Part shown: piece after piece, positions 5,163 to 29,532 of the stretch
How the letters are laid out: every line of letters starts with the position of its first letter
Position numbering within the stretch: the first letter of the stretch is position 1
Source: a virus
DNA: 64,000 nucleotides
Virus record (IMG/VR): IMGVR_UViG_3300029955_000024
Strand: one strand, 5' to 3'
Made by a program: the position numbers and the translations under genes
Notes under the pieces: generated by a model
Databases searched by the model: none
Told to the model about the DNA's origin: nothing
The model's input: only the letters and a program-made list of their open reading frames with translations

Positions 5163-5417
5163 TTAGAATCGTGTTGGTATACCGTTTTGTACAGTTGTAC
5201 TCTCTTCATCTTCTAGCTCAATCCTTTGACCAGAGTCTAGGTTGATAATAGCTACTAGAATATTAATTTCACGATCGTCTTTACTAACTTCTCTCTCTAG
5301 GATAACTTGGACGGTATACCCCTGAGTAGTCCTATCTCTTATGGAAGTAATGTTAGTCCATCTACCGAGTACTGTATTTCCTAGACTGGTGTCTTTTAAA
5401 ACAAAAGTGTTATTCAT
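5163..5417 (-). CDS. hypothetical protein (84 aa)
   Basis: ORF track. Confidence 0.4.
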   Translation of the reverse strand: MNNTFVLKDTSLGNTVLGRWTNITSIRDRTTQGYTVQVILEREVSKDDREINILVAIINLDSGQRIELEDEESTTVQNGIPTRF

Positions 5418-5421
5418 CTAT

Positions 5422-5949: not shown

Positions 5950-6222
5950 ATACTCCTAAATTTGGCTGGGATTGAAGGCTCCCAGCAAGCCCTTACTATT
6001 AGAATTAACTAGGATCAAATAGGTAATTGGCCTAATAGTAATAACTACACACATATTCCACGCTCTTGTTGGCGGCCCCGGAAATCTGGACGATGTTCCC
6101 TACAGCGTTGCGGTCCCCAAACCGCTGCCAAATCCCGGTGAAACCAGTGTGTAGCAAAAGGTTAATTAACATCTACCGCTGTTTCTCCTCTCCCTCGATT
6201 AGCGGTGTCATCGAGGGGCAGG

Positions 6223-6447
6223 TTAATCTGAACCTTTACACGTTGGCTTACTATCAATGATAACGAGATTGGTCCCTGCAGGGTGTTCGTGCTTTTCGAG
6301 TACGTACCCTGTAGGACATTGCCACGTCCCCCAGCCATAATTGGTGTTGGGAAGAATAGCAGGCATATCATCATGATAGTTAATCCATGTAGGTTCAACT
6401 GTTTGCTTGTCAATAATTTCACCATCTTCCATGCGGCGATTCCGCAT
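6223..6447 (-). CDS. hypothetical protein (74 aa)
   Basis: ORF track; sits beside a GC-rich 270-bp non-coding stretch (5950-6222). Confidence 0.35.
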   Translation of the reverse strand: MRNRRMEDGEIIDKQTVEPTWINYHDDMPAILPNTNYGWGTWQCPTGYVLEKHEHPAGTNLVIIDSKPTCKGSD

Positions 6448-6458
6448 ACTGAAGACTA

Positions 6459-7115
6459 TTACATATTCTTCAGCAAATCTTCTGCGGCTGCCGTTGTCTC
6501 AGGATCTTCAGATGTAGTGACAGCTCCCATGGCACGGTTCAACTTCTCTGTGGCTATATCATTCTGTGCTCGCATGCGCCCTTCAACATCATCGACAGAG
6601 ATATCTGCCCCACTGCCTACTAATCTACCCGCGTGCTCAAGAGCAGTTGCTGCATGAGTTTGAGCCTTCGAGGACTGATTTAGTGCCTCAAGTTCACGAA
6701 CTTTGCTCAACATCTCTGCATGCTTACTGGTAATATTGGCGACTGAAATGTCCATCTTGTTCGATGTTTCCGTCTCTGAAATCAACAAAGCCTGCTTGTT
6801 GGTTACTTCATTCTGTAACCGAACAATTTCCTTTGCTTTTTCCAAAGCCTGATCAGGATGCCCGTTGTTTTTCAGCTTCGTTGCTGTAATTCTGGAGGTC
6901 TCGATTTTTGCATTGAGATCGTCGATCTCACGCTTTGTCGTGTGAACTGTAGCTGCTGCTACCGCTGCTTCTCCACGTAGCTGGTCAAGAGCCTCTTCCA
7001 GATCCCTTACATACTGCCGAAGAGCAGATGGACTGTTAAGATCGATCACTTTGTCAAGTAGATCATGGGTCTCACCAAGTCCAATCGTTCTGAGCTTGCT
7101 AAAAATTCCTGTCAT
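6459..7115 (-). CDS. pspA: PspA/IM30/Vipp1-family protein (phage shock protein A homolog)
   Basis: From internal Met: 'MTGIFSKLRTIGLGETHDLLDKVIDLNSPSALRQYVRDLEEAL...' parallels E. coli PspA '[40 protein letters not shown]', then long coiled-coil. ATG at 7113-7115 sits 17 nt after the TPM gene stop. The upstream 75 codons of the ORF are the TPM gene's Gly/Ser tail read in another frame. Confidence 0.85.
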   Translation of the reverse strand: MTGIFSKLRTIGLGETHDLLDKVIDLNSPSALRQYVRDLEEALDQLRGEAAVAAATVHTTKREIDDLNAKIETSRITATKLKNNGHPDQALEKAKEIVRLQNEVTNKQALLISETETSNKMDISVANITSKHAEMLSKVRELEALNQSSKAQTHAATALEHAGRLVGSGADISVDDVEGRMRAQNDIATEKLNRAMGAVTTSEDPETTAAAEDLLKNM

Positions 7116-7131
7116 TGCCTTTCCCTTCTTC

Positions 7132-8472
7132 TTAGAAATCGCTACTACCACCGCCGCCGCTGTCGGAACTGCTGCTACTGTCAAAGCTGCTACTCCCGCC
7201 GCTGTCAAAGCTAGAACTGGAATCAGAACTACCCCAACTGGATGAGCCACCAGACTCGCTTTCACGATCTGGTTCTGGATCTGGAGCTCTGTACGTTGAT
7301 TCTTCTCGTCTTGGTTCTTCGCGACGAATCTCTTCCACACGTGGTCGATTGTTTATAGATTCGCCGATGAGAACACCAGTCAATAAATCATTGTTGGGAG
7401 TTGATGTCGGTGTTGGTTCATAAGTCGGTCTTTGTTCTATGTTATGGTGCTGGTGATGATGCCTAACTTGGTTGTATCCAGTGGTATCATTTACATCGGC
7501 AGTGTCAATGGGGGGTCCTTGTTCAGCCGGCTGTTCCGTTGCCATTGGGCTCTGTACATATTTGTGTGCTGAACGTAGAGACTCGAACTTATCGATGAGG
7601 ATTCGATATTCTTTGGTAATGGCTTGATAACCATCTTCTGTCATACTTTGTTTGGGGTCCATCGAGTCTGAGTTCTCCATATTGGAAAACTCTTCCATAT
7701 ACGTATCAAACATATCTTGAATGGATTTCTCTGGTGGATCACTCTGGAACGCTGATTTGAGGGTAAGAACTAGCGCAATACATTGATTCTTTGTAACTTG
7801 AGCTAACCTCTTCGCTTTTGCTTTGGCATCTCTTATTTCTGCCCAACGGGTGCAAGCGATATACCCTGCGGCAATAATGAAGATTAAGAACCCCAATCCA
7901 AGACACCATAGTAGTACAGTCCATAAACCTTTATAGTCCGTTGCTTGGACATTGGTTGTGTTCTGGACTGGGTGTAGAGCTTCATCTTTGGAAGCCGCTA
8001 ATCGAAGTGAGAATTGTTCGATACCAGTAGACATGCCAAGTGCATAGTTACCGTCTTTGAATCTTGGGATCATATAGGACGTCATGATCCGGTTCCAATT
8101 TCCGTCTAGTGCGGAATGCCAAGCGGAACCATACATTATTCCTACTTTATGATTCCCGGCTAACATAAAAACAATGAGTGTACTTTTACGTCCACCGCTG
8201 CCACTTTCCCAAGAGGCACATTGGTTCTCCATCTGTTTTTCTGTGATATCGAGGTTGGTGCTATACCCGACTGTCCTTATTCGGACATCAGCGCCTTGTT
8301 GAACCAACCTGTTCGCAGCGGTTTCTACTGTTGTAATACCTTTTCCAAACAGATTTGCTTGGTCAATGACAATGTTGTCACACAATAGAGATTGAGCCAT
8401 GACCCAACCTGACGTTGAAAACACCATCATCATAACCAACAACGTATACATTGTCAGCTTTGAACTTTTCAT
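7132..8472 (-). CDS. TPM-domain (TLP18.3/Psb32/MOLO-1, YgcG-like) membrane protein
   Basis: Signal peptide (MKSSKLTMYTLLVMMMVFSTSGWVMA). TPM motifs 'VIDQANLF', 'LIVFMLAGNHKVGIMYGSAWHS', 'IPRFKDGNYALGMSTGIEQ'. One TM helix, then Gly/Ser-rich C-tail typical of YgcG. GGAGGTGGAG RBS before ATG at 8472. Confidence 0.8.
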   Translation of the reverse strand: MKSSKLTMYTLLVMMMVFSTSGWVMAQSLLCDNIVIDQANLFGKGITTVETAANRLVQQGADVRIRTVGYSTNLDITEKQMENQCASWESGSGGRKSTLIVFMLAGNHKVGIMYGSAWHSALDGNWNRIMTSYMIPRFKDGNYALGMSTGIEQFSLRLAASKDEALHPVQNTTNVQATDYKGLWTVLLWCLGLGFLIFIIAAGYIACTRWAEIRDAKAKAKRLAQVTKNQCIALVLTLKSAFQSDPPEKSIQDMFDTYMEEFSNMENSDSMDPKQSMTEDGYQAITKEYRILIDKFESLRSAHKYVQSPMATEQPAEQGPPIDTADVNDTTGYNQVRHHHQHHNIEQRPTYEPTPTSTPNNDLLTGVLIGESINNRPRVEEIRREEPRREESTYRAPDPEPDRESESGGSSSWGSSDSSSSFDSGGSSSFDSSSSSDSGGGGSSDF

Positions 8473-8524
8473 ACACTCCACCTCCAAGTGGATCGGGAGG
8501 GTTGTTACACCCTCCCTTTACTAG

Positions 8525-8824
8525 TTAGTAGTCGTTGATTACGTCGTCGCCATCAAAGTTACCGATATCGGTGTCGTCGGGTTCGTTGACAGGGGTCTTC
8601 TCAGGGATCCCAACTGGTTCCGATGGAGGAGTAGCAATTGGAGGCTTAACCTCTGGGGCTACTGGCGCTCCTTTCACTTTCTTCTTCTCTAGCTTCTTGA
8701 CGCTCGGTTCTTTCACATCCGGTTTAACGGTCTCGACAACTTTCTTCGTTGTCTTCGGGACATCCTTCTTTACGACTTTCTTGGATGCCTTCTTCTTGGT
8801 GACTACTGCTTTCTTTTTGGGCAT
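8525..8824 (-). CDS. Lys-rich histone H1-like / nucleic-acid-binding protein with acidic C-tail
   Basis: 99 aa: KKKAVVTKKKASKKVVKK... (about 30% Lys, Pro/Val spaced) ending DDTDIGNFDGDDVINDY. Confidence 0.5.
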   Translation of the reverse strand: MPKKKAVVTKKKASKKVVKKDVPKTTKKVVETVKPDVKEPSVKKLEKKKVKGAPVAPEVKPPIATPPSEPVGIPEKTPVNEPDDTDIGNFDGDDVINDY

Positions 8825-8890
8825 TGCTTTCTCCGAAAGGACAAGATAAATTCCCTGTCTCTTTTTCAGCGCTTACAACTGAACTTAATA

Positions 8891-9151
8891 TTAGTTTTTT
8901 CTTTTATCTTTTGTTAATCTTCTAAAGTGTTGTGAAATAGTGGTTACAACTTCATCGATCACCACTATAACTAACACGATTAAGGCGAAGGGTATCGTTA
9001 TAACCCAACTTATATAGAAAGGGAGGAGTACTAACCACCAAGACCATGTAATTATATGACATAGTTTGAGTACAACAAAAACTATGCCTAATACCCCAAA
9101 TATTGGGTTTAGATTTACATGAACGGTTGAAACTCTCGATGCGTTAGGCAT
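8891..9151 (-). CDS. small membrane protein (86 aa, 2-3 TM)
   Basis: Strongly hydrophobic ORF. Confidence 0.4.
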   Translation of the reverse strand: MPNASRVSTVHVNLNPIFGVLGIVFVVLKLCHIITWSWWLVLLPFYISWVITIPFALIVLVIVVIDEVVTTISQHFRRLTKDKRKN

Positions 9152-10636: not shown

Positions 10637-12148
10637 TTACACGTCTTTTAGGACGGTGAATGAATCCTTTCGTTTCCTTCTATGACAATTTGTACACATT
10701 ATGAACTCTTTTGTATCATTTTTACAATTGTATTCTTCCCTGATAGTGGTTTTTACCATTCCATGAGGATAATTTATCTCATTACTGTTTTTATCCTTCA
10801 TCCTAACCCCAGTAGTGAACATCATAGTTCCTTTACATTTGGGGCACTTTGCTGCTATACGGATAACCTTGGATTGGTCGGAGAAGAATCCAGTTTTCAG
10901 AAGTCTATTGACATGTTTATACCAAACTTCACAGATTGCTTTCTTAATTGAATCTTTACCATAACTAGGGTTCTCTAGTTGATAGTCAAAAGCACGCTCC
11001 AACATTCTTTTATATTCATTACTGGGGGTGAATCCCCACTCGGTGAGATCGTCGCCAGTAACCAATGGTTTGGGGAATCCAAGAGTCTTAGCAGCAGTTA
11101 TATACCCTATGGTATTCTCCATATTTATAGAGATGATCTTAGCATTAACTAGAATCCATAGTAATTCTATAGCTCTGTTTATATTTGGCTTGTTGGCAAG
11201 CTTCCTTCTTTCACATAGTGAAGTAAGCCTATTAGACCTAAGATCAATTACTATTTGCACCATCTCTGAGATTGTATTTCTGTCTTCGTTAGAGAATTTG
11301 AGATATTTTAATACATCCCCAATATTCCAATATATACCAGTTGTATACAAAAGACAACACCATGCTAAGATTGGATCTTTAACTTGTCCAATCTTGTCGA
11401 AATTGACAGTTTGATCTACTATATTAAAAAGGGAATTTGGTTGTTGCTCATAGATTTTGGTGTATAAATTAGTTCTCTGAAGACAGAACAAAGCGTCACC
11501 GACGTGTTCCCCCGTTATGAGCTTTGTCATTTCGTCTCTAACACGTTCTCGCGAAACCCTAATCATCAAATTTGCATTATTACGAATTGCTCGTAATGTC
11601 TCAAATTCTATCTGAAACCCAAGTTGTGACACGAATCTAACAGCTCTTAACATTCGAAGAGGATCCTCTTGGAAACGAATGTTAGGGTCACCAATACAAC
11701 CAATCCTTCGTATTGATATATCATATTTACCACCAACATAATCAATAACTTCCATTGACTCTGGGTTCATCAATATCCCATTCATCCTAAAATCTCTACG
11801 ACCAGCGTCAATACATTCTTGATCAGTAAATATAACACTATCCGGTCTACGAAGGTCTGAATACTCAGTAGAATCACTTCTCAATGTAGCTACTTCTATG
11901 GAGTGATCTACACCATCTATATCAACAAGGACTTTTACAACTCCGAATTCTACTCCAATTGGAATATTGTGGGGAAATAGATCCATTACTTCATTGGGTT
12001 TAGCTGAAGTACATATATCAAAGTCTTTCGGTTCCTTGTTCATAAGAAGGTTTCTAACACACCTACCTACAAGGAAGACTTTGAAGTTATTTTGCTTTAA
12101 CGTCTTAGCTACTTTCCTAGCAGCTTCTAAACTACTTATCTCTGGCAT
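10637..12148 (-). CDS. cca: CCA-adding tRNA nucleotidyltransferase / poly(A) polymerase family, with C-terminal Zn-ribbon extension
   Basis: Head-domain motifs 'GRCVRNLLMNKEPKDFDI' (GGxVRDxLL..DxD), 'RRDFRMNGILMNP' (RRDFTIN), 'EDPLRMLRAVRF'. C-terminal CPKCKG...CTNCH. ATG at 12148 with AAGGA RBS; the track's 12163 start is TTG. Confidence 0.85.
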   Translation of the reverse strand: MPEISSLEAARKVAKTLKQNNFKVFLVGRCVRNLLMNKEPKDFDICTSAKPNEVMDLFPHNIPIGVEFGVVKVLVDIDGVDHSIEVATLRSDSTEYSDLRRPDSVIFTDQECIDAGRRDFRMNGILMNPESMEVIDYVGGKYDISIRRIGCIGDPNIRFQEDPLRMLRAVRFVSQLGFQIEFETLRAIRNNANLMIRVSRERVRDEMTKLITGEHVGDALFCLQRTNLYTKIYEQQPNSLFNIVDQTVNFDKIGQVKDPILAWCCLLYTTGIYWNIGDVLKYLKFSNEDRNTISEMVQIVIDLRSNRLTSLCERRKLANKPNINRAIELLWILVNAKIISINMENTIGYITAAKTLGFPKPLVTGDDLTEWGFTPSNEYKRMLERAFDYQLENPSYGKDSIKKAICEVWYKHVNRLLKTGFFSDQSKVIRIAAKCPKCKGTMMFTTGVRMKDKNSNEINYPHGMVKTTIREEYNCKNDTKEFIMCTNCHRRKRKDSFTVLKDV

Positions 12149-12273
12149 ATATTCCTTGTTCAATCTTATCCCAAGTACTCAGGACTAAAAGGGGGTAGTG
12201 TAAGTTATAAAGTAGTAAAGTACACTACCCTTCGTATTTGTCTACTTCTGACCACCAAACCATCATGGCTTGT

Positions 12274-13191
12274 CTACTTGTTTGGAATTCCAATCAGAAA
12301 GTTTCCACCCTTGTCACCACCGGATAGATACTCTGGCATACGACCATCCCAACGCCAAATAGCAGCATTCTGGTTATCCAGTGCTCTCATATTTAAGATG
12401 TTTGGTGTGATTGAAGCGTTCCTGATTCTATTGGCTTCCGCTTCACCAGTAGCCTTGGTAATCTGTGCCTTAGCTTCACCCTCAGACTGAGCAACTAGTT
12501 TAGCTGCATCAGCTTGCACCTGAATAAGCTCAATCTGCTTCTTCTGTGCAACTTGATTTGCCTGTGCCTTATTGTTGATAGCATCGATTACTGATTGAGG
12601 TGGCCTTGGTGCTCCGATGAACCCGAACTGAGTAAGCTCAGCTCCATACTCTAATACTTGGCTTTGAACGCATTTCTTGGTTTCTTCAATGAAAACTGCG
12701 TTATCACCCATAACTTGTTCGATGCCATACTTGCCGGCATGTTCATTGAAGCAGTCTCTTGCTATGTTTCTAAGGAACCCGTGAGTGAATTTCGTATCAA
12801 TTTCTTTTTCGTCGTGTGCCAAGAACTTTACATAGAAGTATGGAACTTTCTCTGCATGTAGGAAATAACTCAATGAGATATCAGCACCAATTACCATTGA
12901 ATCTTTGTTGGTAAAGGTGATACTCTCGTCGATTGGCTTGCCCTCGTTGGGGCTTGCAGTCCATTTCGCTGTCTGCATGGAGGTTGGGTATTCATACACA
13001 CTCTCGGTAATTGGGTTATAAAACACCCAGCCAGTACGAACAGGGGTATCCGTTACCCCTTTGCTTGAACCTGCCATGTTTACAACAATTCCGACATGTC
13101 CCGGTCCAACTGACGTCCAGCCACAACCGGTTAGGAGACAAGCGGATAAGATAGTAACAATCAAGCTAAGATTCGCTGTGTTTAGTTTCAT
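12274..13191 (-). CDS. SPFH/band-7 (stomatin/prohibitin-like, YqiK/QmcA-type) lipoprotein
   Basis: Signal + lipobox LLTGC. 'VGPGHVGIVVNMAGSSKGV', coiled-coil 'AQANQVAQKKQIELIQVQADAAKLVAQSEGEAKAQ' and 'AEANRIRNASITPNILNMRALDNQNAAIWRWDGRMPEYLSGG' match the SPFH C-terminal region. AAGGAG RBS before ATG 13191. Confidence 0.8.
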   Translation of the reverse strand: MKLNTANLSLIVTILSACLLTGCGWTSVGPGHVGIVVNMAGSSKGVTDTPVRTGWVFYNPITESVYEYPTSMQTAKWTASPNEGKPIDESITFTNKDSMVIGADISLSYFLHAEKVPYFYVKFLAHDEKEIDTKFTHGFLRNIARDCFNEHAGKYGIEQVMGDNAVFIEETKKCVQSQVLEYGAELTQFGFIGAPRPPQSVIDAINNKAQANQVAQKKQIELIQVQADAAKLVAQSEGEAKAQITKATGEAEANRIRNASITPNILNMRALDNQNAAIWRWDGRMPEYLSGGDKGGNFLIGIPNK

Positions 13192-13441
13192 TTTCGTTCT
13201 CCTTGTGATACTGAAGTTGTAGGTAATGATATGTTTCTCCAAACAATTTATAACTCCAAGAACTTGCGTACTTCCAACTGATGAACAAACTAATCAATAC
13301 AACAAACAGCCCAAAGAAAGCCAATAGAGTACTGGGAGCGGATAAGGCAACAAACCCCCAATTCATGACATATAACCCAGCGCATGTTACAACTACAATC
13401 TTGAGAGATTGTATAAGGAAGTGCCACCAGAATCTATTCAT
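13166..13441 (-). CDS. small 2-TM membrane protein, possible NfeD/YqiJ-like partner of the SPFH protein
   Basis: 91 aa, two hydrophobic helices, sits immediately upstream of the SPFH gene and overlaps it by 26 nt. Confidence 0.35.
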   Translation of the reverse strand: MNRFWWHFLIQSLKIVVVTCAGLYVMNWGFVALSAPSTLLAFFGLFVVLISLFISWKYASSWSYKLFGETYHYLQLQYHKENENETKHSES

Positions 13442-13525: not shown

Positions 13526-14053
13526 TTAAAAGTCTTCGTCAACACAACGCACGGGAATGACTCTTACTCCTTCTCTTCTCCACATATCAACAACCCGTTT
13601 ACGATCCTCAATGGCGAACAGAATTTGATCTTTTCCTCTTGGTAATGAGTTAACTAACTCATTCAGAATTTCCTTTTTTACTACGTCGCCTGGTCTCTTA
13701 TCCCCTTCCCAACAGAAGAATATCCAAGAGAAAGGAATGTCATATTTTCTTAACCACTCTACGGACAGATCCCCTGTTGTGAAAGAAGGGCGGCCAGATA
13801 TGATGACGATACTACAATCTTGAGAGATTGTCCGTACCCAAGAAGCTATAATGTCCACTGGAAGGTCATTACACGCTTCTATGTGAAATTGTTTGAAGTT
13901 TTTAGGATGAGATTTAACGTAGTGTAGTCTATGACTACAGTCTGACAGTGTTCCGTCTAGATCAACAATCACTACTGGTTTTTCTCCCCATTCTATCTTG
14001 TTCTCCAGTAATAACACTCTGGACTTTTCAACACTGTTACGACATGGTTTCAT
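13526..14053 (-). CDS. HAD-family polynucleotide 3'-phosphatase, T4 Pnkp phosphatase-domain-like (no kinase domain)
   Basis: 'VVIVDLDGTL' DxDGT motif. C-terminal 'DVVKKEIL...FAIEDRKRVVDMWRREGVRVIPV' matches remembered T4 Pnkp 'DVVKEEIF...[22 protein letters not shown]'. No P-loop. Confidence 0.6.
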   Translation of the reverse strand: MKPCRNSVEKSRVLLLENKIEWGEKPVVIVDLDGTLSDCSHRLHYVKSHPKNFKQFHIEACNDLPVDIIASWVRTISQDCSIVIISGRPSFTTGDLSVEWLRKYDIPFSWIFFCWEGDKRPGDVVKKEILNELVNSLPRGKDQILFAIEDRKRVVDMWRREGVRVIPVRCVDEDF

Positions 14054-15734: not shown

Positions 15735-16166
15735 TTATTCCTCCTGTTCTTCCTCTTCTACTTCGATTGCGTTGGCTACAGCAACGGTTGTTGGTCCAAC
15801 GTTGTTTTTGGCTATTGTTTCAGTCCGATGTACCGTTGCACTATACCCGGACTGACCTTCATAGACGTTCACGTATACCGTTTTTCTAACCCGTTTTGGT
15901 GCCATATACAACAATCCTGAGGTGCCAGAACTAATCCCATCCAAAGAGGAAGTTATTATTTTCCTTGATGCAGAGTGTAATTCCAACATAACTGGTCTAA
16001 CAGATAACAATACCCGAGTTAAGACATATACTGTAGTTCTGTCTTTCTCTAGGCAGACCGCATCAAGGCTTAGCACTCTCTTCAAATCAAACGGTTTCAG
16101 TGGCTTCTTCTCTCGTTCTTCCGCTGGCTTCTCGTCACCATTCTCCCCATTTGGGGTATCTGACAT
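15735..16166 (-). CDS. hypothetical protein, paralog A (shares C-terminal domain with next gene)
   Basis: C-terminus 'KTVYVNVYEGQSGYSATV...TTVAVANAIEVEEEEQEE' resembles C-terminus of 16173..16904. Confidence 0.45.
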   Translation of the reverse strand: MSDTPNGENGDEKPAEEREKKPLKPFDLKRVLSLDAVCLEKDRTTVYVLTRVLLSVRPVMLELHSASRKIITSSLDGISSGTSGLLYMAPKRVRKTVYVNVYEGQSGYSATVHRTETIAKNNVGPTTVAVANAIEVEEEEQEE

Positions 16167-16172: not shown

Positions 16173-16904
16173 TTACTCCTCTTCTTCTATTTCAATCTCC
16201 TGTGCTACTGCTACAGCAAGTTCCCCAGCGGTGTCGCTGGCCCTATTTGCTGTTAAATGAGAAACGAGCTTGTACCCGTTGTACCCAAAGGGATCTGGAT
16301 AGACATTCACATAAATCTTCTTCTTGATCTTCTTTTGAGCCATGCACAGGGAACCTTCACGCGTCATTCCTTTTGCATCTGAAGCTATGTGTGCACCACC
16401 CAAACGTGAGTGGTACTCCAAAACACATGAACAACTTCCAAGCAAGATACGAGTGAGGATAAATTCCACTCCTGTACATGGTAGAACCACTGAGTTACCG
16501 TTTACCACGTCTTCCAGACTAAACTGTTTCAGAGGTTTCTGTTCTGGCCGTGGAAACCGACTCCAATCAGCCGGGTGCAACGGGTTTGGCGTAGGCGTCG
16601 GTGGTGATTTCTCGAATGTCTTGTTTGGGGCGTCTGCCACGTCTTTCTCATCCTTTCCAAGGACAAACTCCATGCTTCTTCTCTCCTGTGCTTCATGTTC
16701 CATAGTTTTACATCCGTCCCGGATAGTTACGTTTACTAGGAAGCTTGTGCAGAGGGGTTTACACGACGGACATAGATAGATATTCGTGTCTGGGTTGTGT
16801 AAATGAAGCATAGCACGGTCGAGCTTACCTAAGCTCCATTCTTTCCTCTTAGTACTTGCTACGCTTCGGAGGCAACCTGAGCATTTTGATACTTTTCTAG
16901 GCAT
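16173..16904 (-). CDS. hypothetical protein, paralog B
   Basis: C-terminus 'KKIYVNVYPDPFGYNGYKLV...LAVAVAQEIEIEEEE'. Internal ATG 16904 avoids overlap with 16921..17307. Confidence 0.45.
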   Translation of the reverse strand: MPRKVSKCSGCLRSVASTKRKEWSLGKLDRAMLHLHNPDTNIYLCPSCKPLCTSFLVNVTIRDGCKTMEHEAQERRSMEFVLGKDEKDVADAPNKTFEKSPPTPTPNPLHPADWSRFPRPEQKPLKQFSLEDVVNGNSVVLPCTGVEFILTRILLGSCSCVLEYHSRLGGAHIASDAKGMTREGSLCMAQKKIKKKIYVNVYPDPFGYNGYKLVSHLTANRASDTAGELAVAVAQEIEIEEEE

Positions 16905-16920
16905 TGCCCTCACTTTCAGA

Positions 16921-17307
16921 TTAGCCTTTGAATGTTCCCCAAATCTTCTTATCTTGTGGAAGGTACAGTTCCCACTTCTCATCGAAGTAACAATTACTTG
17001 GTGCGTTCTCGAACATCTTTGCCATGTCTTGGTCACGTAGTCTTGCTCGTCCACAACCTATACGAGTTACTTGGAACTCTCTCTTTTGCTGGTTAATAGC
17101 AAAAGATATGAAGTTCTCTACGTAGACATTTATCTCTTTGAGTGTCAATGTCCTTAGGGACCCATCCTTCGTGGGAATAGCATAACTATTCCCGTGGAAA
17201 CCCATATGACCTTCCACTCCTAATATTGCTCCATATTCTCTTAGCGCTGTTAACGCCGCGCCGGCTCCGTGGCGACCCCCGAGGTTAGAACCGAAGACAA
17301 ATATCAC
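16921..17307 (-). CDS. hypothetical protein with Gly-rich Rossmann-like N-terminus
   Basis: 'IFVFGSNLGGRHGAGAALTA' resembles nucleotide-binding loops of SLOG/macro-type folds but the protein is only 128 aa. Confidence 0.4.
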   Translation of the reverse strand: MIFVFGSNLGGRHGAGAALTALREYGAILGVEGHMGFHGNSYAIPTKDGSLRTLTLKEINVYVENFISFAINQQKREFQVTRIGCGRARLRDQDMAKMFENAPSNCYFDEKWELYLPQDKKIWGTFKG

Positions 17308-17322: not shown

Positions 17323-18576
17323 TCATTTTAAGATACCTTTGAAGGACTCAACTGACATTCTGTCCTCGAACCTTGGTCCAAACGAGATTGTGTTGATAGT
17401 CGGTTCCAACAAATTCTTTAGAACAGACAAGTAAGTGCTTAGACTCGGGGGTTGTATAAACAAACCCTTCTCTGAGTCGATTATCTTCAGATAGTCTGTC
17501 CACCTGTCCAAATGGGACAAAGCTATTTCATCTACGCCTTTACAAATCTTAATGGACTTATTGACAAGCCCAATGTCCAAGTGTCCCACCCGAAACTCCC
17601 CTTGATACTCGCCTTTCTGGTTATGATTTTCTGGCAGTAAACCAGTTAATCTCATATCCTCGGTTGGGAATGGACCCACTCCGTGACGAGTGGCGTAGGT
17701 TCTTATACAGCCAATTCTGACTCTGTTACCAATGAACCCAGAAATGTTGAGCAAATCATCAGCATTCCTGAAAGTTGTGTTGGTCCATGAGTTATACGGA
17801 TAGGTCCCATACCACTCATCTAACATTACTCCTTGTGCCCCCTCGAACACAGATGCAGTGGATTTTGATAGCAAATCAGAAAGGAACTCTTGTGGCTTTA
17901 CCTGAGCGTTCCATTTGCTATATATCCGACTGTGCCATTCAGACCAGTCTTCATTACTATCTACTATGATGTCGTAGTCCTTTTTCCACTGGTCCACTGG
18001 TATCTTTTCCAATGTCGGAAGCAGCTCTTTCAGCTTGGCGAGGTACACCTTGTGAAGGAAGCTCAATTTGCTACGTGTTACCTCTTCTGATTCTATGTCT
18101 TTAGCAAATAGGACGTTGTTCCCATATTCAATGGAATCACTACGAGTTTGTCCTATTCCTTGTCCACAGCTACCGTGTCTGTTCTTCCCTCTGGCAATTT
18201 CTCTCAACCTTCCAAAAGCTATTTGGAAGGGAGTGACTACCAAGCAATCCCCATCAACAAATGTTCTGTCCCATATATCAGTTATCCCAAGGGACATTAG
18301 ATGAGCTGCTTCTCTCATCATGTAGAATGGATTGACCAATGTAAACTTGGACAAGTAAGTCTTCACATTGGGTTGTAGCATCCCACTACCAAACTGTTGG
18401 AAGGTATGGCTTCTCGATAATTCAACAACGTTATGTGCAGCTTGTGGCCCACCGTTGTATCGAACTATCAAATCAGCTTTGTGAGTACGGGTTAGATACT
18501 CTACGTGGGCTCCTTTTGCGCAATCGCCCCATAGCATCCCAGCAACGAGATATGCTATACCCATTAGTACCTCCAT
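17323..18576 (-). CDS. adenylosuccinate synthetase family protein (divergent PurA/PurZ-like)
   Basis: 'WGDCAKGAHV' (P-loop GDEGKGK), 'GGPQAAHN', 'GSCGQGIGQTR', 'FEGAQGVMLDEWYGTYPY', 'TRHGVGPFPTE' parallel PurA motifs. The TGRRRR region is diverged. Confidence 0.75.
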   Translation of the reverse strand: MEVLMGIAYLVAGMLWGDCAKGAHVEYLTRTHKADLIVRYNGGPQAAHNVVELSRSHTFQQFGSGMLQPNVKTYLSKFTLVNPFYMMREAAHLMSLGITDIWDRTFVDGDCLVVTPFQIAFGRLREIARGKNRHGSCGQGIGQTRSDSIEYGNNVLFAKDIESEEVTRSKLSFLHKVYLAKLKELLPTLEKIPVDQWKKDYDIIVDSNEDWSEWHSRIYSKWNAQVKPQEFLSDLLSKSTASVFEGAQGVMLDEWYGTYPYNSWTNTTFRNADDLLNISGFIGNRVRIGCIRTYATRHGVGPFPTEDMRLTGLLPENHNQKGEYQGEFRVGHLDIGLVNKSIKICKGVDEIALSHLDRWTDYLKIIDSEKGLFIQPPSLSTYLSVLKNLLEPTINTISFGPRFEDRMSVESFKGILK

Positions 18577-18655: not shown

Positions 18656-18880
18656 TCACCTCTCGATTTTCTTATCTAACCATTCAGTGAACACCATGAA
18701 ACTATCTCTTGGTGTTAACATTGACACTACAAGGGTGATAGGGCCTAACAGAACAAATATGACCAAACCGACTACGAATAACAAAGTTCGGTTCCTACGA
18801 TCACACTGTTCTGTATAGGCCCATATCCAAGGTAGTGCCATAACAAGACCGAACGCTACCCAGATTTCCACCAAATGCAT
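18656..18880 (-). CDS. small membrane protein (74 aa)
   Basis: Two hydrophobic helices. Confidence 0.4.
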   Translation of the reverse strand: MHLVEIWVAFGLVMALPWIWAYTEQCDRRNRTLLFVVGLVIFVLLGPITLVVSMLTPRDSFMVFTEWLDKKIER

Positions 18881-18882
18881 GG

Positions 18883-19806
18883 TTAAGACTCTTCTCTGAA
18901 GAACTCTCCACCACTTGCAGTTGCTGTGGAGGCTTTCTCCTTGTCTGTCGCTTCAGCTTTCTCCATCTCTGAGGCAACGACTTCGATTAGATGCTTTGGA
19001 CTCTGAACGGTGATAACGTTGTTATCACCAACCAGTTTTACATACTGCTCTCTGGCCTCTGTCTGTCCACTGGTAGGCCAAAGGAACATTAGATGATACT
19101 TTGCTTGAACTTCTTTGACGATCTCCTCAATGGGGATGTCAGCTTGGATGTGATCGTCGAAAACATATTCCACATGTTTCGCGCTCACTTTACTGAACAC
19201 TGGCTCGTCGGCATAGAGGAACATGTACCCTTTCTTTCCTCTCTTATCCAGTGAGTCAAGCTTCGTCTTGCGAGCGGCGCAGTACAACAGTAGATCGTAA
19301 GACTCTCCCGGGTTAGAGCCGCCCCGTCCAATTAACCAAGTTGCACGTATCGAGTCGTCGATACGATTGTCTGATTCAAAATCGGACACCTGAATACAGG
19401 ATGGACCTGAAGTCAGGTAATCATCGTTTGACCAGACAGCAACTTGTGGATTGGGTATCACTTTCAGCAGTCGTGCCATCAGAGTTGGCAGCTCCTTTTG
19501 TGCGATGACAGCGTTGCTGTAGTTTGATCCAGTTACATCAAACGTGAGAATGACAGGCAAAGATTCAGGGTGTTCTGTACTGTCACAACTCTCCAGAACC
19601 CCCATTGCTTTCTTGTTGATCCGAAGAGGATCAAGCATCTGATTAACCTTTTGTGTCTTTTCTGCCTCCTCGGTGTAAGCGAAATCCTTTACCCCTGATT
19701 TGGAACGTAATGCTCTTGCCGTTCCATAACTCGCTTCTGAAAATGTTCCTCCTCCGATATAGCTAACCCATCCCTTTCCTAAGATTGAGTTTGGCAAATT
19801 CTCCAA
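18883..19806 (-). CDS. von Willebrand factor A (vWA)-like protein
   Basis: 'ILTFDVTGSN' fits the MIDAS DxSGS motif, in the context of a 307-aa alpha/beta-looking protein. Confidence 0.5.
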   Translation of the reverse strand: MENLPNSILGKGWVSYIGGGTFSEASYGTARALRSKSGVKDFAYTEEAEKTQKVNQMLDPLRINKKAMGVLESCDSTEHPESLPVILTFDVTGSNYSNAVIAQKELPTLMARLLKVIPNPQVAVWSNDDYLTSGPSCIQVSDFESDNRIDDSIRATWLIGRGGSNPGESYDLLLYCAARKTKLDSLDKRGKKGYMFLYADEPVFSKVSAKHVEYVFDDHIQADIPIEEIVKEVQAKYHLMFLWPTSGQTEAREQYVKLVGDNNVITVQSPKHLIEVVASEMEKAEATDKEKASTATASGGEFFREES

Positions 19807-21815: not shown

Positions 21816-23462
21816 TTAGCTCGCCCTGTGCCACCCCTTGGCAGATTTCAGGGCAAAAAGAATGTTCTTAGCTTCTGCTGAGTCTCCTCCAGCCAAACTT
21901 TCAGTGTACATTAACATTGCAGCTTCAGTGTTTCCCTTGTCTGGGTGAAAATCAAGGAATACACCAGCCCTTGGGACTTGTCTATCAGTTAGATTCTGGG
22001 CTTTTATCTTTGCCACCGCTCCAATTAGTTGGTCTCTGTGGTCCCAGATCCACTGTCTCTTCTCATCAGTAATACTGAAGCTACCAATTTCTCCCCTAGC
22101 CCCGTTAGCAGGGTTCTCAACAACCATCCTGCCAACGGAACCTGAGTACTTACCTGATCCTTCAAGGATCTCCACAACAGGTAGATCAAAAGGATCCGTG
22201 TTCTTTACTTTGAACCAATTACCCTCGCCGACTTTACTATCAACAGACTTGGCGACAATTCCTTCACCATATGGCATTGGTTGAGCAATAACCATATCGT
22301 AGAACTCTTCTGGTGACTGGTATCGCCCTTTCTCAGCACTCACGTACCAGTGCTTGTTGAAAATCCTAACTTCGGCAATGGTATCCTTAAGTAGCGCACG
22401 CCGCTCTCCGTATGGCAACTTTGATACGTCCCTACCACGGTACTTGAGAATATCCCAAGCAACAAAGGTGGCCTCACCACGGAGCGCCTGAATTTGGCGA
22501 GCCTTTTCCGGATAAGCATTTAGGATCCCTCCTATTCTCCCAGGGCCATCGGGATGGACTAATTCACCTCTTACAAGGGATCCACGTAAATTTGGACCTC
22601 TGAACAACTTTCTGGAAGACCACAAATTTGATGTGTTACTTATATGCTCCAACTGTGGAAGCCTGTCGTAATATGTCTCCCCTTCTTCTCTATGGCTTCT
22701 AAAGGTAGCATAGTTGTCCATGATGAGTACGTTAGAAAGTGAACCATCATACTTCTGTTCAAATACGTACTCATCTGGGTTGACGGTTTTTAGCCAGTTT
22801 CTCAGCTTCGTTCTGTAAGCTGGTTTTGGTATTACCATGCCTTCGTCTTTCATCGGGACTATAAGCTTTCCCTTCGGAGTGGTCACAAAGGCATAGCGCC
22901 CCTTGAATTCGCCAGATGGTATGTTAAGTTCCCACTGCTCTGTTCCAGGAGGTACCCCCTCAACGACAAGGTCGTAATGCAAGCCAGCTCTGATTGCATT
23001 ATGAGAGTGGTAATTAATTTTGGCGGGAAAGGTCCTTTCACCAATCTTAACAATACCGACCTTAGAAAGAAGCAGTGTTTTAATTCCTTTACCGTAACCT
23101 TCCTCGATTTCCCCAGAGAAGTCTGTGATAAAGTGCGGATCATTCTCGATCGCAAGCGCACGCTTGCCACTGATCGGTAAACCCTTCGGAATCGCGTACT
23201 TGGCAAACGCCGGATTAGGCGTGAATTCATTAAGGGTAGCTCCATCTACTGACCTCGTAGGATACCATCTAGAAGTGTACAATCTAGAACGGGGATACTT
23301 AGGTAACAACATAGCATGAAGATTGTTTTGAACTCTTGGCTGTATAACAGAACCAAAAGTATCAAGTCCGATGTCTAATCCAGTCCTGAGTAGGGCTTTC
23401 GATATCGTTTTTACCCATCTCCAAACTTTGCTTTTCATGTTGTCACTCCCGGTATTTTCCAC
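21816..23462 (-). CDS. ATP-dependent polynucleotide ligase (DNA/RNA ligase nucleotidyltransferase superfamily)
   Basis: Motif I 'KYDGSL', motif IV 'EGIVAK', motif V 'WFKVK', motif III-like 'FVAWDIL'. No Arg after motif I Gly (present in many DNA ligases). Confidence 0.75.
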   Translation of the reverse strand: MENTGSDNMKSKVWRWVKTISKALLRTGLDIGLDTFGSVIQPRVQNNLHAMLLPKYPRSRLYTSRWYPTRSVDGATLNEFTPNPAFAKYAIPKGLPISGKRALAIENDPHFITDFSGEIEEGYGKGIKTLLLSKVGIVKIGERTFPAKINYHSHNAIRAGLHYDLVVEGVPPGTEQWELNIPSGEFKGRYAFVTTPKGKLIVPMKDEGMVIPKPAYRTKLRNWLKTVNPDEYVFEQKYDGSLSNVLIMDNYATFRSHREEGETYYDRLPQLEHISNTSNLWSSRKLFRGPNLRGSLVRGELVHPDGPGRIGGILNAYPEKARQIQALRGEATFVAWDILKYRGRDVSKLPYGERRALLKDTIAEVRIFNKHWYVSAEKGRYQSPEEFYDMVIAQPMPYGEGIVAKSVDSKVGEGNWFKVKNTDPFDLPVVEILEGSGKYSGSVGRMVVENPANGARGEIGSFSITDEKRQWIWDHRDQLIGAVAKIKAQNLTDRQVPRAGVFLDFHPDKGNTEAAMLMYTESLAGGDSAEAKNILFALKSAKGWHRAS

Positions 23463-24379: not shown

Positions 24380-24976
24380 TCAATAAGTAAAGAGCGTTAT
24401 CAAGGTAATGATAGCTATTAAAGCTATTGCTACCCCGTGGTACTCCCTTGGGCTAATATAGTAGTTACTACCAACGTACTCAGCGATTTTATAGTCCCTT
24501 ATCTTTTTACCTTTGTCGTTGTAGTGCTCACCAATAACTACGGACCTAGTCATACACGTTTTCTTATATGACCATAGCCAAATTGATAGGGAAACAACCA
24601 TGAACAGTAATCCCATTGATATATGTACCAATATACCAATAAGACTATCGCCTATCAACTTCCATACTACTACAATAGCAGTTAATTTGCCAACTGGTGT
24701 CTGGGCAAAGTTGTTGGCTTGAATGTTAATAGCAGACATAGAATCATTGATTGCTACCCCAACTTCTTTTCCTACCCCCACCCAACTGTGAACTTCCGTC
24801 TTCACATCCGTCTTCTGGACTTGCTGTAGTTGATATTCTGTCAACAGACTTTTTGGGACTACTACGTGGTCTGTATCCTGACCTTGGCTCATCGTAGGTG
24901 TCAGTAGTAGCATTGATACGAACACCAAGGTTATCATTAGCCTTAGGCTCAATAACCTCTTCCTTAACTGGTTCAT
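24380..24976 (-). CDS. membrane protein (start uncertain)
   Basis: N- and C-terminal TM helices; 5' part overlaps 24744..25331. Confidence 0.4.
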   Translation of the reverse strand: MNQLRKRLLSLRLMITLVFVSMLLLTPTMSQGQDTDHVVVPKSLLTEYQLQQVQKTDVKTEVHSWVGVGKEVGVAINDSMSAINIQANNFAQTPVGKLTAIVVVWKLIGDSLIGILVHISMGLLFMVVSLSIWLWSYKKTCMTRSVVIGEHYNDKGKKIRDYKIAEYVGSNYYISPREYHGVAIALIAIITLITLFTY

Positions 24977-25331
24977 TTTCTCCCCTTATTCTCCACAACT
25001 CAGTCGCTTGACAAACATGGCCAAGCTGGCCAAATATATCACTTAGACCTGAAGCTTGTTTCAACACTAACAAAAGCTCAGGGTTCTCAGCGATGTACTC
25101 ATCCCATAACTGTGAGTACAATTTGGTAACAGCTTCCATGTTTACTGCTTGTCTTCCTTTTGCTTGTCTCCAAGACAACCCAGTTGTCCCATCCTCGAAG
25201 ATCTTGGCTGCTTGGTAAATTTCTTCAATGGGCTTGTTACCACGACTTCGGATTCTAGCCCAGAACGCACTGAGCCTTTTGAAACCACGAGTTGAGCATT
25301 CTATAAATGGTGGATTACCATGTTTTACCAA
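24744..25331 (-). CDS. hypothetical protein (195 aa)
   Basis: ORF track; 'GFKRLSAFWA' vaguely ParB/Srx-like GxxRLxA but not convincing. Confidence 0.35.
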   Translation of the reverse strand: MVKHGNPPFIECSTRGFKRLSAFWARIRSRGNKPIEEIYQAAKIFEDGTTGLSWRQAKGRQAVNMEAVTKLYSQLWDEYIAENPELLLVLKQASGLSDIFGQLGHVCQATELWRIRGENEPVKEEVIEPKANDNLGVRINATTDTYDEPRSGYRPRSSPKKSVDRISTTASPEDGCEDGSSQLGGGRKRSWGSNQ

Positions 25332-27952: not shown

Positions 27953-28149
27953 GGAAGGTTGTCAGTTACATCGATCTCAGGTGTTGGTACAACAACTTGG
28001 ACTTCCTTCTGAATGATCTGTCCATTGATAACACTTTCCACTATAACCGTGGAGAGTGTGTCAACATTGACATCATCAGAATTATCAAGTGGTTGGTTTT
28101 CAGATGATTGGGCCATCGACTGTGGATAGTATCTGTTTGTACCACACAT
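27946..28149 (-). CDS. hypothetical protein (67 aa)
   Basis: ORF track. Confidence 0.3.
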   Translation of the reverse strand: MCGTNRYYPQSMAQSSENQPLDNSDDVNVDTLSTVIVESVINGQIIQKEVQVVVPTPEIDVTDNLPW

Positions 28150-28510
28150 TGTCCTTACTCCTCTCTGCCAATTCTATTAACACATCTCCATGGCAACTCA
28201 AAGGAAAGCACCAGCATCCAAGAGTCTTATCTTGTAATTGGGTTAGTTGAGAAAGTATATTTTTCCTCATTACTTCCCAACTATTCTGCCAAAGGGCCGG
28301 GAAACGATTGTATACCCAGTCTTCCTTTAACAACCAAGCTCTGTAACAGTCCACAGACTCTTGTCTACTATCCACTTGGAAAGTAGCAAAAGTCTTGTTA
28401 ACGTCTAGATGAGTGAACGGATTACCAAGCTCGGTTGTTCTATCTATCCGAATATCAAATTTACCCCTCTTCAGATGGACAACTCTCCCTGGCATCTTTT
28501 CTCCCTTCAT
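28100..28510 (-). CDS. DUF4326-like protein
   Basis: 'LGNPF...YRAWLL...LGCWCFPLSCHGDVL' pattern recalled for DUF4326 phage proteins. Confidence 0.4.
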   Translation of the reverse strand: MKGEKMPGRVVHLKRGKFDIRIDRTTELGNPFTHLDVNKTFATFQVDSRQESVDCYRAWLLKEDWVYNRFPALWQNSWEVMRKNILSQLTQLQDKTLGCWCFPLSCHGDVLIELAERSKDNVWYKQILSTVDGPII

Positions 28511-28672: not shown

Positions 28673-29206
28673 TTACGAACTAACCGGTTTTTCTATTAAC
28701 TCTCTTAGACAAGTTACAAGAAATTTGTCCACAGTCAAAGTTGTACTTGGTAACACAGTTACCACTTTTATACCTAAACCAGTGGCAATCCGAATGCCTT
28801 GTCTTGTCCCACCGTTGCCATCTTCTTGTGGAAATGCACACACAAGACAAGATCCTTCGATAATACCGAAGTTACGAGCATGAAGCTTAAACGCTCCCTG
28901 TGTTAGAAAACTTGGATTCGGATGGTATTGTATAACTGAATCTCTCCAATCCAGATGAACCAACTCATCATACACAATCTTGTGTGTACAGTCTCTCGGT
29001 ATAATCCCCGAGTTGTATGAGTACCAAGGCAAATACACTCGTAGATTCTTGGGTGTAGCGTTTAGCATGGCTGCGTGATCAATTCCCATTGCTGCTCCAG
29101 TAGCGATTACATAGTCGAGGAAGGAGAATTTTCTCGCTGCAGCTGCAGCTAATACAAGTTGTCGTTGACTGGGGTTACGAGTGCCAATAATGGCAATCTT
29201 GCTCAT
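28673..29206 (-). CDS. DprA/Smf-like Rossmann (SLOG superfamily) protein, paralog 1
   Basis: 'IAIIGTR...ATGAAMGIDHAAM...GNGGTRQGIRIATGLGIKVVTV' follows the DprA pattern (vaIVGSR...SGlArGIDaaAH...SGslITA..A). Confidence 0.6.
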   Translation of the reverse strand: MSKIAIIGTRNPSQRQLVLAAAAARKFSFLDYVIATGAAMGIDHAAMLNATPKNLRVYLPWYSYNSGIIPRDCTHKIVYDELVHLDWRDSVIQYHPNPSFLTQGAFKLHARNFGIIEGSCLVCAFPQEDGNGGTRQGIRIATGLGIKVVTVLPSTTLTVDKFLVTCLRELIEKPVSS

Positions 29207-29223: not shown

Positions 29224-29532
29224 TCACTTCTTCGGTGTCAAAGTTCCGAGAGAACGTGTGTAGCAGAGAACTTTACCGTCTACTGCTACACCAACATAGT
29301 TTCCATTCTCTCGGAACTGGACGACCTCATGTCCTTCTCTAGCTAACTTCCCCCAGAGGCTTGGCTTGTTTGGATTTTGTTCAATTGCAAGGACAGGTTT
29401 TCCACCGGTGTCCCTGAAAAACGCGGTACGAAGACCACTAATTGATGTCCTCTTGATAGTTAGTGACTTACCACTCTTCGTTATCCCCGTGAACAATGCT
29501 CTTGCTATTGCTTTGAACAGAGTTCCATTCAT
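29224..29532 (-). CDS. hypothetical protein with P-loop-like motif (102 aa)
   Basis: 'TGITKSGKS' fits GxxxxGKS but the protein is too short for a standard kinase or ATPase; overlaps next gene by 65 nt. Confidence 0.3.
   Translation of the reverse strand: MNGTLFKAIARALFTGITKSGKSLTIKRTSISGLRTAFFRDTGGKPVLAIEQNPNKPSLWGKLAREGHEVVQFRENGNYVGVAVDGKVLCYTRSLGTLTPKK

Follow-up and report, generated by a model that had tools for sequence, protein, structure and literature searches.

A phage PurA-like protein of a third PF00709 clade, encoded beside a vWA gene and possibly tied to NAD+/ADP-ribose conflict

The closest described relatives of the protein reported here are housekeeping PurA, which converts inosine monophosphate (IMP), aspartate and GTP to adenylosuccinate, and the phage enzymes PurZ and PurZ0, which condense dGMP with aspartate at the start of dZTP synthesis for 2-aminoadenine (Z) genomes. 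In a 2026 survey of 481 viral proteins of the adenylosuccinate-synthetase family (PF00709), Asp13 (Escherichia coli numbering) was found in 99% of PurA, and Ser replaced it in 100% of 147 phage PurZ/PurZ0 sequences (PMC12884076). A second study takes Ser at position 13 as the definition of dZ genomes. PurZ still condenses aspartate, with "T273-T276 strictly conserved" in its aspartate-binding loop, and at the position equivalent to Asp333 it carries Asn or Gln, with aromatic stacking on adenine (PMC8342488). We analyzed a PurA-like gene on the minus strand (positions 17323 to 18576) of a 64,000-nucleotide (64-kb) stretch of IMG/VR virus record IMGVR_UViG_3300029955_000024. This stretch, referred to below as the window, is part of a phage genome of at least 215 kb that is known from metagenomes. 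The G+C content of the window phage is 38-50%; when 20 kb of the window were compared by megablast with 50,697 phage records, no record matched.

Several protein families handle nicotinamide adenine dinucleotide (NAD+) and ADP-ribose. NrtR regulators are sensors of ADP-ribose whose classical targets are the synthesis and salvage of NAD (PMC2330246), and DprA/SLOG-type, DUF4326 and NADAR domains have been linked to the processing or sensing of NAD+/ADP-ribose derivatives in viruses (PMC9503650). By its sequence, the PurA-like protein is a member of a large third PF00709 clade that is distinct from both PurA and PurZ/PurZ0. We read it as a GTP-dependent enzyme that would use a nucleophile other than aspartate and would act with a von Willebrand A (vWA) partner in NAD+/ADP-ribose conflict, and we give this composite reading a probability of roughly 0.55. 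The enzyme family is known, yet its arrangement with vWA and kinase-fold genes was not found described in targeted literature searches, nor in PMC9503650, a jumbo-phage survey, or the NARP1-3 and Kongming papers.

The PurA-like protein and its clade

The open reading frame (ORF) is clearly a genuine gene for an adenylosuccinate-synthetase-fold protein. Its longest form has 417 amino acids. The start is probably the second ATG, at 18564 (17323 to 18564, 413 amino acids), because a GGAGG Shine-Dalgarno sequence lies 7 nucleotides 5' of it and the public gene calls for an identical protein begin there. The product matches Pfam PF00709 (Adenylsucc_synt) with 187.6 bits (E=4.3e-55). The P-loop reads GDCAKG and supplies Asp18 and Lys21 (E. 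coli Asp13 and Lys16), His48 corresponds to E. coli His41, and FEGAQG and TRHGVGPFPTE occupy residues 244-249 and 296-306. All of the motifs listed in an earlier note on this sequence (P-loop Asp/Lys, catalytic His, FEGAQG, and TRxGxGPFPTE) are therefore present. An AlphaFold (AF2) model had a mean confidence score (pLDDT) of 88.9, and its best Foldseek matches were PurA structures (E=5e-24), with a template-modeling (TM) score of about 0.7.

The assignment to a third clade rests on profile scores, BLAST, fold ranking and alignment. A clade hidden Markov model (HMM), made without the query's identical sequence, gave 514 bits for the query, 463 for gp104 of mycobacteriophage Tonenili, 234 for E. 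coli PurA, and 34-44 for PurZ proteins. In contrast, the NCBIfam PurA equivalog models gave the query only about 95-147 bits against cut-offs of 368-700, including 142.8 bits on TIGR00184 (cut-off, 395.6) and 146.9 bits on NF002223 (cut-off, 402). Identity to E. coli PurA is 29%. On these scores the query does not cluster with housekeeping PurA, which the earlier note had named, along with normal adenine in the virion DNA, as the outcome that would speak against its proposal; the HMM scores place it in the third clade instead. The clade is large, with 2072 sequences at E<=1e-30 in a representative library (50% identity representatives), at least 596 GTDB species genomes with a match, and 379 IMG/VR matches, mainly on contigs of 100-500 kb. 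The bacterial hosts include Chloroflexota, Actinomycetota, Patescibacteria, Planctomycetota, Myxococcota, and others. A further 202 matches come from Mycobacterium phage records of cluster C, in which the protein is named "PurA-like" or, in RefSeq, "2-aminooxy adenylosuccinate synthetase."

We made an alignment of the query, 270 relatives drawn from two very large collections of proteins, and reference PurA and PurZ sequences. Asp13, Lys16, His41, Gln224, Arg272, and Asp333 are kept clade-wide. Four other positions set the clade apart from both PurA and PurZ: Asn38 is replaced by Gln in 266 of the 270 relatives, Thr129 by Cys in 258, Ser240 by Trp in 247, and Val273 by His in all 270. No conserved Arg occurs in this alignment near position 143, the inter-subunit clamp on the 5'-phosphate, so that of Asn38, Thr129, Thr239, Arg143', and Val273, only Thr239 is kept in the clade. 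The aspartate loop of PurA, GATTGRRRR, becomes G(E/M)(Y/W)QG-xF, with the clade pattern (W/Y/F)-Q-G-x-F-R; Thr300, Thr301, Arg303, and Arg305 are all replaced, and an Arg aligned with Arg306 remains. In query numbering, the signature residues are Asp18, Lys21, Gln45, His48, Cys137, Gln248, Trp264, His298, and Asp357, and the loop reads Tyr324-Gln325-Gly326-x-Phe328-Arg329, where x is Glu. We take the changed positions to line the nucleotide and aspartate pockets in E. coli PurA structures, with Thr300, Thr301, and Arg305 presumably serving its L-aspartate site. The corresponding positions line the same pockets in the structure of S-2L PurZ, for which the role of Arg303 is also described (PMC8342488). 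Together, the PF00709 match and these clade-wide pocket and loop changes support the earlier description of a divergent adenylosuccinate-synthetase homolog with altered specificity. A PurA phosphotransfer core that is kept next to an aspartate site that is lost suggests a new reaction on an old scaffold.

The altered specificity does not appear to be that of PurZ, which the earlier note had put forward together with a Z genome. The query and 269 of the 270 relatives have Asp at position 13, whereas phiVC8 and S-2L PurZ have Ser in the same alignment column. The NCBIfam PurZ model NF038379 gave the query 28.4 bits against a cut-off of 300. By BLAST, the query matched phiVC8 and S-2L PurZ with 26-30 bits, weaker than the 61-65 bits between E. 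coli PurA and PurZ. A sequence search of the PDB with the query at E<=0.01 matched 22 PurA sequences and no PurZ chain, and 32 PurA chains ranked above every PurZ or PurZ0 chain in the Foldseek search. The guanine-reading Asp is kept (query Asp357, equivalent to Asp333; 268 of 270 relatives) and probably points to GTP as the phosphoryl donor. The region around TGRRRR has indeed diverged, as had been noted (GATTGRRRR to GEYQG-EFRV), but this divergence is not a sign of PurZ. In the alignment, the TT-x-T-K loop of PurZ corresponds to TT-G-R of PurA, and the query reads GEYQG-EF. Since PurZ still uses aspartate and keeps a PurA-like loop, the diverged loop argues against PurZ.

The window offers no partner genes for Z synthesis. 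In tblastn searches of the 64 kb with DatZ, MazZ, DpoZ, and PrimPol of phiVC8 and S-2L, nothing fell below E=0.3, and a Pfam census that included 62 further window ORFs found no HD, MazG, DUF550, dUTPase, or DNA polymerase A domain. This confirms, for the window, the earlier observation that neither DatZ (HD) nor MazZ is visible. With Asp13 and Asp333 kept, the PurZ model score far below its cut-off, the aspartate loop lost and the partners absent from the window, PurZ/PurZ0 identity is strongly disfavoured; judged from its residues, the protein is not PurZ and would not make the 2-aminoadenine precursor. The PurZ-type label that RefSeq and PHROG attach to the cluster C mycobacteriophage homologs looks like an over-propagated annotation, because the labelled proteins keep Asp13 and lack PurZ features. 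Such labels (RefSeq, PHROG 1211) could mispredict Z genomes for hundreds of phages. Tests of Asp13 and of the aspartate loop separate PurZ from the query's clade cleanly.

The vWA/kinase-fold module and its link to NAD+ and ADP-ribose genes

The comparison covered 165 loci with a PurA-like gene. Five of these are the window, Tonenili, and three bacterial loci; the other 160 (80 from genomes and 80 viral) are the ones most similar to the query and do not form a random sample. One HMM per module family was run over all stop-to-stop ORFs of these loci. In Tonenili, the order is gp106 ("Ser/Thr kinase"), gp105 (hypothetical), and gp104 (PurA-like). The same trio is found on a bacterial contig of 3 Mb, and the Tonenili partner proteins are homologous to the bacterial ones (E=2e-77 and 3e-54). 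In the window, the gene 250 nucleotides upstream of the PurA-like gene (18883 to 19806, minus strand) encodes a 307-amino-acid vWA protein with a metal ion-dependent adhesion site (MIDAS), which is of the phrog_2971 family and falls in the gp105 family (E=2e-40 and 1e-39). A gp105-like vWA (MIDAS) gene was found in 155 of the 165 loci and a J-domain kinase-like gene in 136, with absences mostly at contig ends. The prevailing layout is kinase, vWA, and PurA-like, on the same strand and abutting. The PurA-like, vWA, and usually kinase-fold genes form a conserved same-strand module.

The kinase-like protein matches the Pkinase domain (E=8.5e-9) and has weak matches to an N-terminal DnaJ domain, with an HPD motif, and to "ternary complex associated domain 9." Among 137 members, the ATP-binding Lys is conserved in 93% and the Glu in 96%. 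However, the catalytic loop reads HGA instead of HRD, so that the catalytic Asp is missing, and the DFG Asp is only moderately conserved, indicating from these motifs that the protein is an atypical kinase or pseudokinase. No PurB-like lyase, Hsp70, or phosphatase recurs as a fourth module gene among the clustered neighbours, and the same clustering showed no recurrent defence genes around the bacterial copies. One bacterial copy has an AbiE pair at a distance of 2 kb. PADLOC models gave no match to the PurA-like, vWA-like, or downstream proteins of the window. In the published literature, no function is given for the mycobacteriophage PurA-like, vWA, and kinase-fold genes.

The neighbours in the 165 loci were clustered de novo under strict coverage, identified by Pfam, and recounted with HMMs. 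In 42 loci (33 genome loci and 9 viral loci) there is an NrtR-type regulator (Nudix plus NrtR winged helix), usually directly upstream and on the same strand; the genomes belong to Actinomycetota, Saccharibacteria, Ktedonobacteria, Anaerolineae, and Terriglobales. Eleven loci, all but one of them viral, carry NAMPT-family genes, and 7 carry NADAR genes, on either side of the module. At least one of NrtR, NAMPT/Namat, and NADAR is present in 50 of the 165 loci. Several viral contigs of 200-500 kb carry compact clusters of NrtR, NAMPT, vWA, PurA-like, and kinase genes, sometimes with NADAR after them. In nine such IMG/VR loci (L106-L111, L116, L117, and L133), the NrtR-type regulator heads the cluster, and the kinase-fold gene follows the PurA-like gene instead of preceding the vWA gene. 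Phages with NrtR-headed clusters may sense ADP-ribose themselves.

Most of the NAMPT-family genes carry the NAMPT-type helix G(S/M)GGxLLQxxNRD. The copy in two near-identical loci, L099 and L100 (IMG/VR 3300010373_000045 and 3300010396_000003; positions 3690-9134), reads GSFTYEFVTRD, and the gene after it has weak Prs-type matches (Pribosyl_synth, 1.1e-4; Pribosyltran_N, 5e-3). These Namat and Prs-like genes lie between the vWA and PurA-like genes, and the locus is without a kinase-fold gene. The published Namat signature is GS-X-phi-X-phi-X-phi-TRD (PMC12774641). The fit of GSFTYEFVTRD to this signature, together with the weakly Prs-like next gene, suggests a putative NARP1 pair inside the module. 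NrtR operons of unknown function, designated nrtX-nrtY, have been listed for Streptomyces, Kineococcus, Frankia, Proteus, and Hahella (PMC2330246, Table 1). These might be bacterial NARP1-like pairs or relatives of the module. Since the module occurs in the same clusters as NAMPT or as Namat and a Prs-like gene, under an NrtR-type regulator, counter-defence against NAD+ depletion is plausible, and the module may be tied by its gene context to NAD+/ADP-ribose conflict. This linkage to NrtR, NAMPT, NADAR, and Namat plus Prs-like genes touches on the depletion and rebuilding of NAD+, a topic at the forefront of current work on bacterial immunity.

Within the window, the gene 15 nucleotides downstream of the PurA-like gene (16921 to 17307, minus strand; 128 amino acids) belongs to phrog_2072 (E=1.2e-44), a family with more than 2000 homologs, all hypothetical. 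It sits where 7 related loci carry NADAR. Against the PDB, the top five matches of the family profile were TARG1/OARD1 macrodomain chains, at weak scores (E about 0.1), in an alignment that spans a (P/T)RIGCGL motif and an invariant Lys. The product is possibly a macrodomain-like ADP-ribose-binding protein. A DUF4326 gene (28100-28510; E=1e-18), two DprA/SLOG-type genes (28673-29206, E=1.6e-8; and 29468-30061, E=1e-5, below the Pfam cut-off), and a 195-amino-acid ORF resembling NADAR, the DarT1-associated antitoxin (24744-25331; sub-threshold, E=2.6e-4, 21 bits versus 27), all on the minus strand, lie 6-12 kb from the PurA-like gene. The NADAR-like ORF overlaps another ORF (24380-24976), and its gene model is uncertain.

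Proposed reaction and competing explanations

The probability given above for a GTP-dependent enzyme with a non-aspartate nucleophile rests mostly on clade membership, the residue pattern, the module, and the link to NAD/ADP-ribose genes; the reaction itself is a prediction. The phosphotransfer core and the guanine-specific Asp are intact, and GTP-driven carbonyl phosphorylation is thus probably kept. GTP would phosphorylate the carbonyl oxygen of a bound nucleotide-like substrate. Because Asp13 and Gln224, which act on the purine lactam in PurA, are invariant here, the simplest acceptor would be a 6-oxopurine nucleotide. The replacement of the aspartate ligands by aromatics and His suggests that the nucleophile is not aspartate, in which case the PurB step would not be needed. 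The phosphate would then be displaced by another nitrogen nucleophile, e.g., ammonia or some other amine, and the result would be a one-enzyme amination or ligation without PurB. Judging from the altered phosphate and ribose ligands, the remainder of the substrate would also differ from IMP. During phage infection, the enzyme and its vWA partner might maintain or replenish the pools of adenine or pyridine nucleotides while NAD+ is being cleaved by host immunity; alternatively, they might process a metabolite related to ADP-ribose or of the inosine type. The vWA and J-domain kinase-fold proteins would be partners or regulators.

Several points weigh against this proposal. The reaction is deduced from residue patterns only; an ordinary IMP substrate would likewise suit the kept Asp13 and Gln224, and aspartate could be bound by a site made of other residues. 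We take Asn38, Thr129, Thr239, and Arg143 to be the 5'-phosphate ligands of E. coli PurA, with the homologous PurZ pocket list (PMC8342488) as a cross-check. A simple metabolic function does not explain the vWA and J-domain kinase-fold proteins. As to gene context, 115 of the 165 loci have no NAD-related gene within about 8 kb, and jumbo phages cluster accessory genes, so that some of the adjacency may be incidental. The window itself has no NrtR, NAMPT, Namat, Prs-like, or NMNAT gene by Pfam census and HMM, and it lacks the kinase-like gene by an HMM search of all window ORFs and by tblastn, as do about 15% of the viral loci. The match behind the macrodomain-like assignment of the phrog_2072 product is weak. 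Finally, the loci include near-duplicates (L099/L100 and L116/L117) and many related Actinomycetota, and the locus counts therefore overstate the number of independent events.

A more far-reaching version of the proposal is possible but tentative. The PurA-like, vWA, and kinase-fold proteins might constitute an undescribed pathway that responds to ADP-ribose via NrtR and carries out a GTP-driven, aspartate-free amination or ligation. The candidate reactions would be conversion of IMP to AMP with ammonia, re-amidation of a nicotinate nucleotide, and conversion of an inosine- or ADP-ribose-type metabolite. Jumbo and cluster C phages would pair the module with NAMPT or NARP1 against immunity that depletes NAD+; in many bacteria, it would serve the homeostasis of NAD+ and adenylates.

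The architecture of the module also accommodates a role other than metabolite supply. The vWA protein and the J-domain pseudokinase could act as sensors or chaperones of a target and regulate the PurA-like enzyme, which would be the effector or signal-maker of a conflict system and make or destroy a nucleotide signal or toxin, e.g., by removing inosine nucleotides (such as the precursor of Kongming deoxyinosine triphosphate, dITP). The combination of vWA, kinase fold, and J domain resembles regulated multi-component systems of comparative genomics. The weak match of the kinase to "ternary complex associated domain 9," the ADP-ribose-sensing repressor upstream, and the AbiE pair near one bacterial copy fit such a role. 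Systems predicted to counter ADP-ribosylation bring together Nudix-HTH regulators, vWA chaperones, and NADAR/Macro domains (PMC9503650), and dITP signalling triggers NAD+ depletion (Kongming paper). However, the lack of PADLOC matches for the three window proteins and of recurrent defence genes near the bacterial copies counts against it, the known anti-Kongming factor is a deoxynucleoside monophosphate phosphatase and not a PurA-like protein, and since phages and hosts alike carry the genes, the action could run in either direction. We consider an effector role unlikely.

We rate lower again the idea that the enzyme rebuilds NAD+ directly, with a pyridine or ADP-ribose substrate instead of a purine. 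This could proceed by GTP-dependent amidation of nicotinate mononucleotide or deamido-NAD via an acyl phosphate, or by phosphorylation of ADP-ribose followed by attack of nicotinamide, and the new aromatic pocket (Trp, Tyr, Phe, His) would hold the pyridine ring. The gene lies inside NrtR-NAMPT clusters and, in L100, next to Namat and Prs-like genes, and the classical members of NrtR regulons are genes for the synthesis and salvage of NAD (PMC2330246). Changes affect three of the four presumed 5'-phosphate ligands and the entire aspartate loop, and they have brought in aromatics and His. On the other side, the idea is purely inferential, and the invariant Asp13 and Gln224, which in PurA contact the purine at N1-H and at O6/N7, favour a purine-like lactam. 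Such an activity would also be partly redundant where NARP1 or NAMPT is present, and most loci have no NAD enzyme nearby.

Quite improbable, in our estimate, is an ordinary PurA acting as an auxiliary metabolic gene, in which adenylosuccinate formed from IMP, aspartate, and GTP would be finished by host PurB and raise the AMP supply. The kept Asp13, Lys16, His41, Gln224, and GTP-specific Asp333, the PurA structures as nearest solved relatives (TM about 0.7), and the annotation of bacterial members as "adenylosuccinate synthase" would suit it. However, the score reaches about a third of each PurA equivalog cut-off, all four loop residues from Thr300 to Arg305 listed above are replaced, and changes also affect Asn38, Thr129, Val273, and Arg143. 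Housekeeping purA, which in E. coli is flanked by yjeT and nsrR, does not show such strict linkage to vWA and kinase-fold genes. The hosts of the clade include Actinomycetota (e.g., Streptomyces and Micromonospora), which probably carry a canonical purA besides. A natural-product PurA paralog of the toyocamycin or formycin type was considered separately and rejected: such pathways keep aspartate with a PurB homolog, and no such neighbours are present here. PurZ or PurZ0, condensing dGMP and aspartate for a 2-aminoadenine genome, has in its favour that the protein is a phage-encoded PF00709 member which PHROG 1211 groups with PurZ as "2-aminooxy adenylosuccinate synthetase," as RefSeq does its mycobacteriophage homologs, and is next to negligible given the retained Asp13 and Asp333, the low PurZ scores, the missing loop, and the lack of DatZ, MazZ, DUF550, dUTPase, and DpoZ in the window.

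Genomic surroundings and comparison with known systems

Between the vWA and PurA-like genes, a 74-amino-acid ORF with two hydrophobic stretches (18656 to 18880, minus strand) begins 2 nucleotides after the vWA stop codon; it is called in all four public locus copies and has no family match in Pfam and PHROG searches. Further downstream of the PurA-like gene, two minus-strand ORFs (15735-16166 and about 16173-16673) look like tandem paralogs without a family match, and both end in K-x-(V/I)-Y-V-N-V-Y followed by an acidic tail (EVEEEEQEE and EIEIEEEE). One call of 293 amino acids (16173-17054) overlaps the macrodomain-like gene; the public calls give a 166-amino-acid version. About 3 kb upstream of the module lies an ATP-dependent DNA ligase gene (DNA_ligase_A_M plus OB_2; 21816-23462, minus strand).

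On the same strand, genes for a TPM-domain protein (7132-8487), a CCA-adding or poly(A) polymerase-type nucleotidyltransferase (10637-12163), a Band-7/SPFH protein (12274-13242), and a HAD-type polynucleotide kinase-phosphatase (13526-14053) form a run that recalls cluster C mycobacteriophage content, despite the lack of a DNA match to deposited phages. A pair of minus-strand tRNA-Met (CAT) genes (1359-1435 and 2620-2694) flanks a ferritin-like gene (1680-2168; E=1.4e-18) and a 137-amino-acid ORF. Minus-strand genes extend to about 48.6 kb; beyond about 48.7 kb and as far as the end of the window, the plus strand carries a block of large ORFs of up to 766 amino acids. The strand switch at about 48000-49000 coincides with a reversal of GC and AT skew. 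A minus-strand ORF of 1261 amino acids (41554-45339) has no Pfam match at E<=0.001.

Among the systems described, PurA (E. coli; PDB 1ADE and 1CG0) has in common with the query the fold, Asp13, Lys16, His41, Gln224, FEGAQG, TRxGxGPFPTE, and Asp333. Given this shared fold and these catalytic motifs, the query probably shares GTP-driven carbonyl phosphorylation followed by displacement by a nitrogen nucleophile. It differs from PurA in the replaced aspartate loop, in Asn38Gln, Thr129Cys, Ser240Trp, and Val273His, and in the lack of an Arg143 equivalent, and its clade differs in nearly always having a vWA gene beside it and usually a kinase-fold gene. PurZ and PurZ0 (phiVC8, S-2L, and Gordonia phage Archimedes; PDB 6FM1, 7ODX, and 7VF6) are, like the query, phage PF00709 proteins with altered specificity. 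However, PurZ has Ser13, the TT-x-T-K loop, the Arg143 clamp, use of ATP/dATP by aromatic stacking, and a length of 343-359 amino acids, and the query has none of these. The companions of PurZ, namely DatZ with MazZ/DUF550 or DutZ with DmtZ, plus DpoZ (or PrimPol), were not found in the query window.

The NAD+ pathways offer a different kind of likeness. NARP1 consists of Adps and Namat, NARP2 of NAMPT and NMNAT, and NARP3 of PnuC and a NadR-like protein. Loci related to the query, although not the window itself, share NAMPT or Namat plus a Prs-like gene with these pathways, whereas the published NARP1-3 pathways contain no PurA-like, vWA, or kinase-fold protein. The Nudix/WYL systems centred on ADP-ribosylglycohydrolase (ARG) (Iyer et al. 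2022, PMC9503650) share the Nudix-HTH repressor, a vWA "peptide-binding chaperone," and optional NADAR/Macro domains with the module loci. Their core, however, is ADP-ribosylglycohydrolase plus phosphatase, with no PurA-like or J-domain kinase-fold protein, and they are found in hosts only (PMC9503650).

A counterpart of the window in a deposited phage is the Tonenili locus (Bixzunavirus, cluster C). The window phage is unlike Tonenili in its lower G+C content and in having no kinase-fold gene within the 64 kb. Cluster C mycobacteriophages with the full triad can be cultured and engineered in Mycobacterium smegmatis, which makes the function of the module directly testable. Tonenili gp104 is of the same clade as the query, with 37% identity and the same signature residues; the vWA gene gp105 lies upstream of it, as in the window, with the J-domain kinase-fold gene gp106 before gp105; and a polynucleotide kinase is encoded near the PurA-like gene in both phages.

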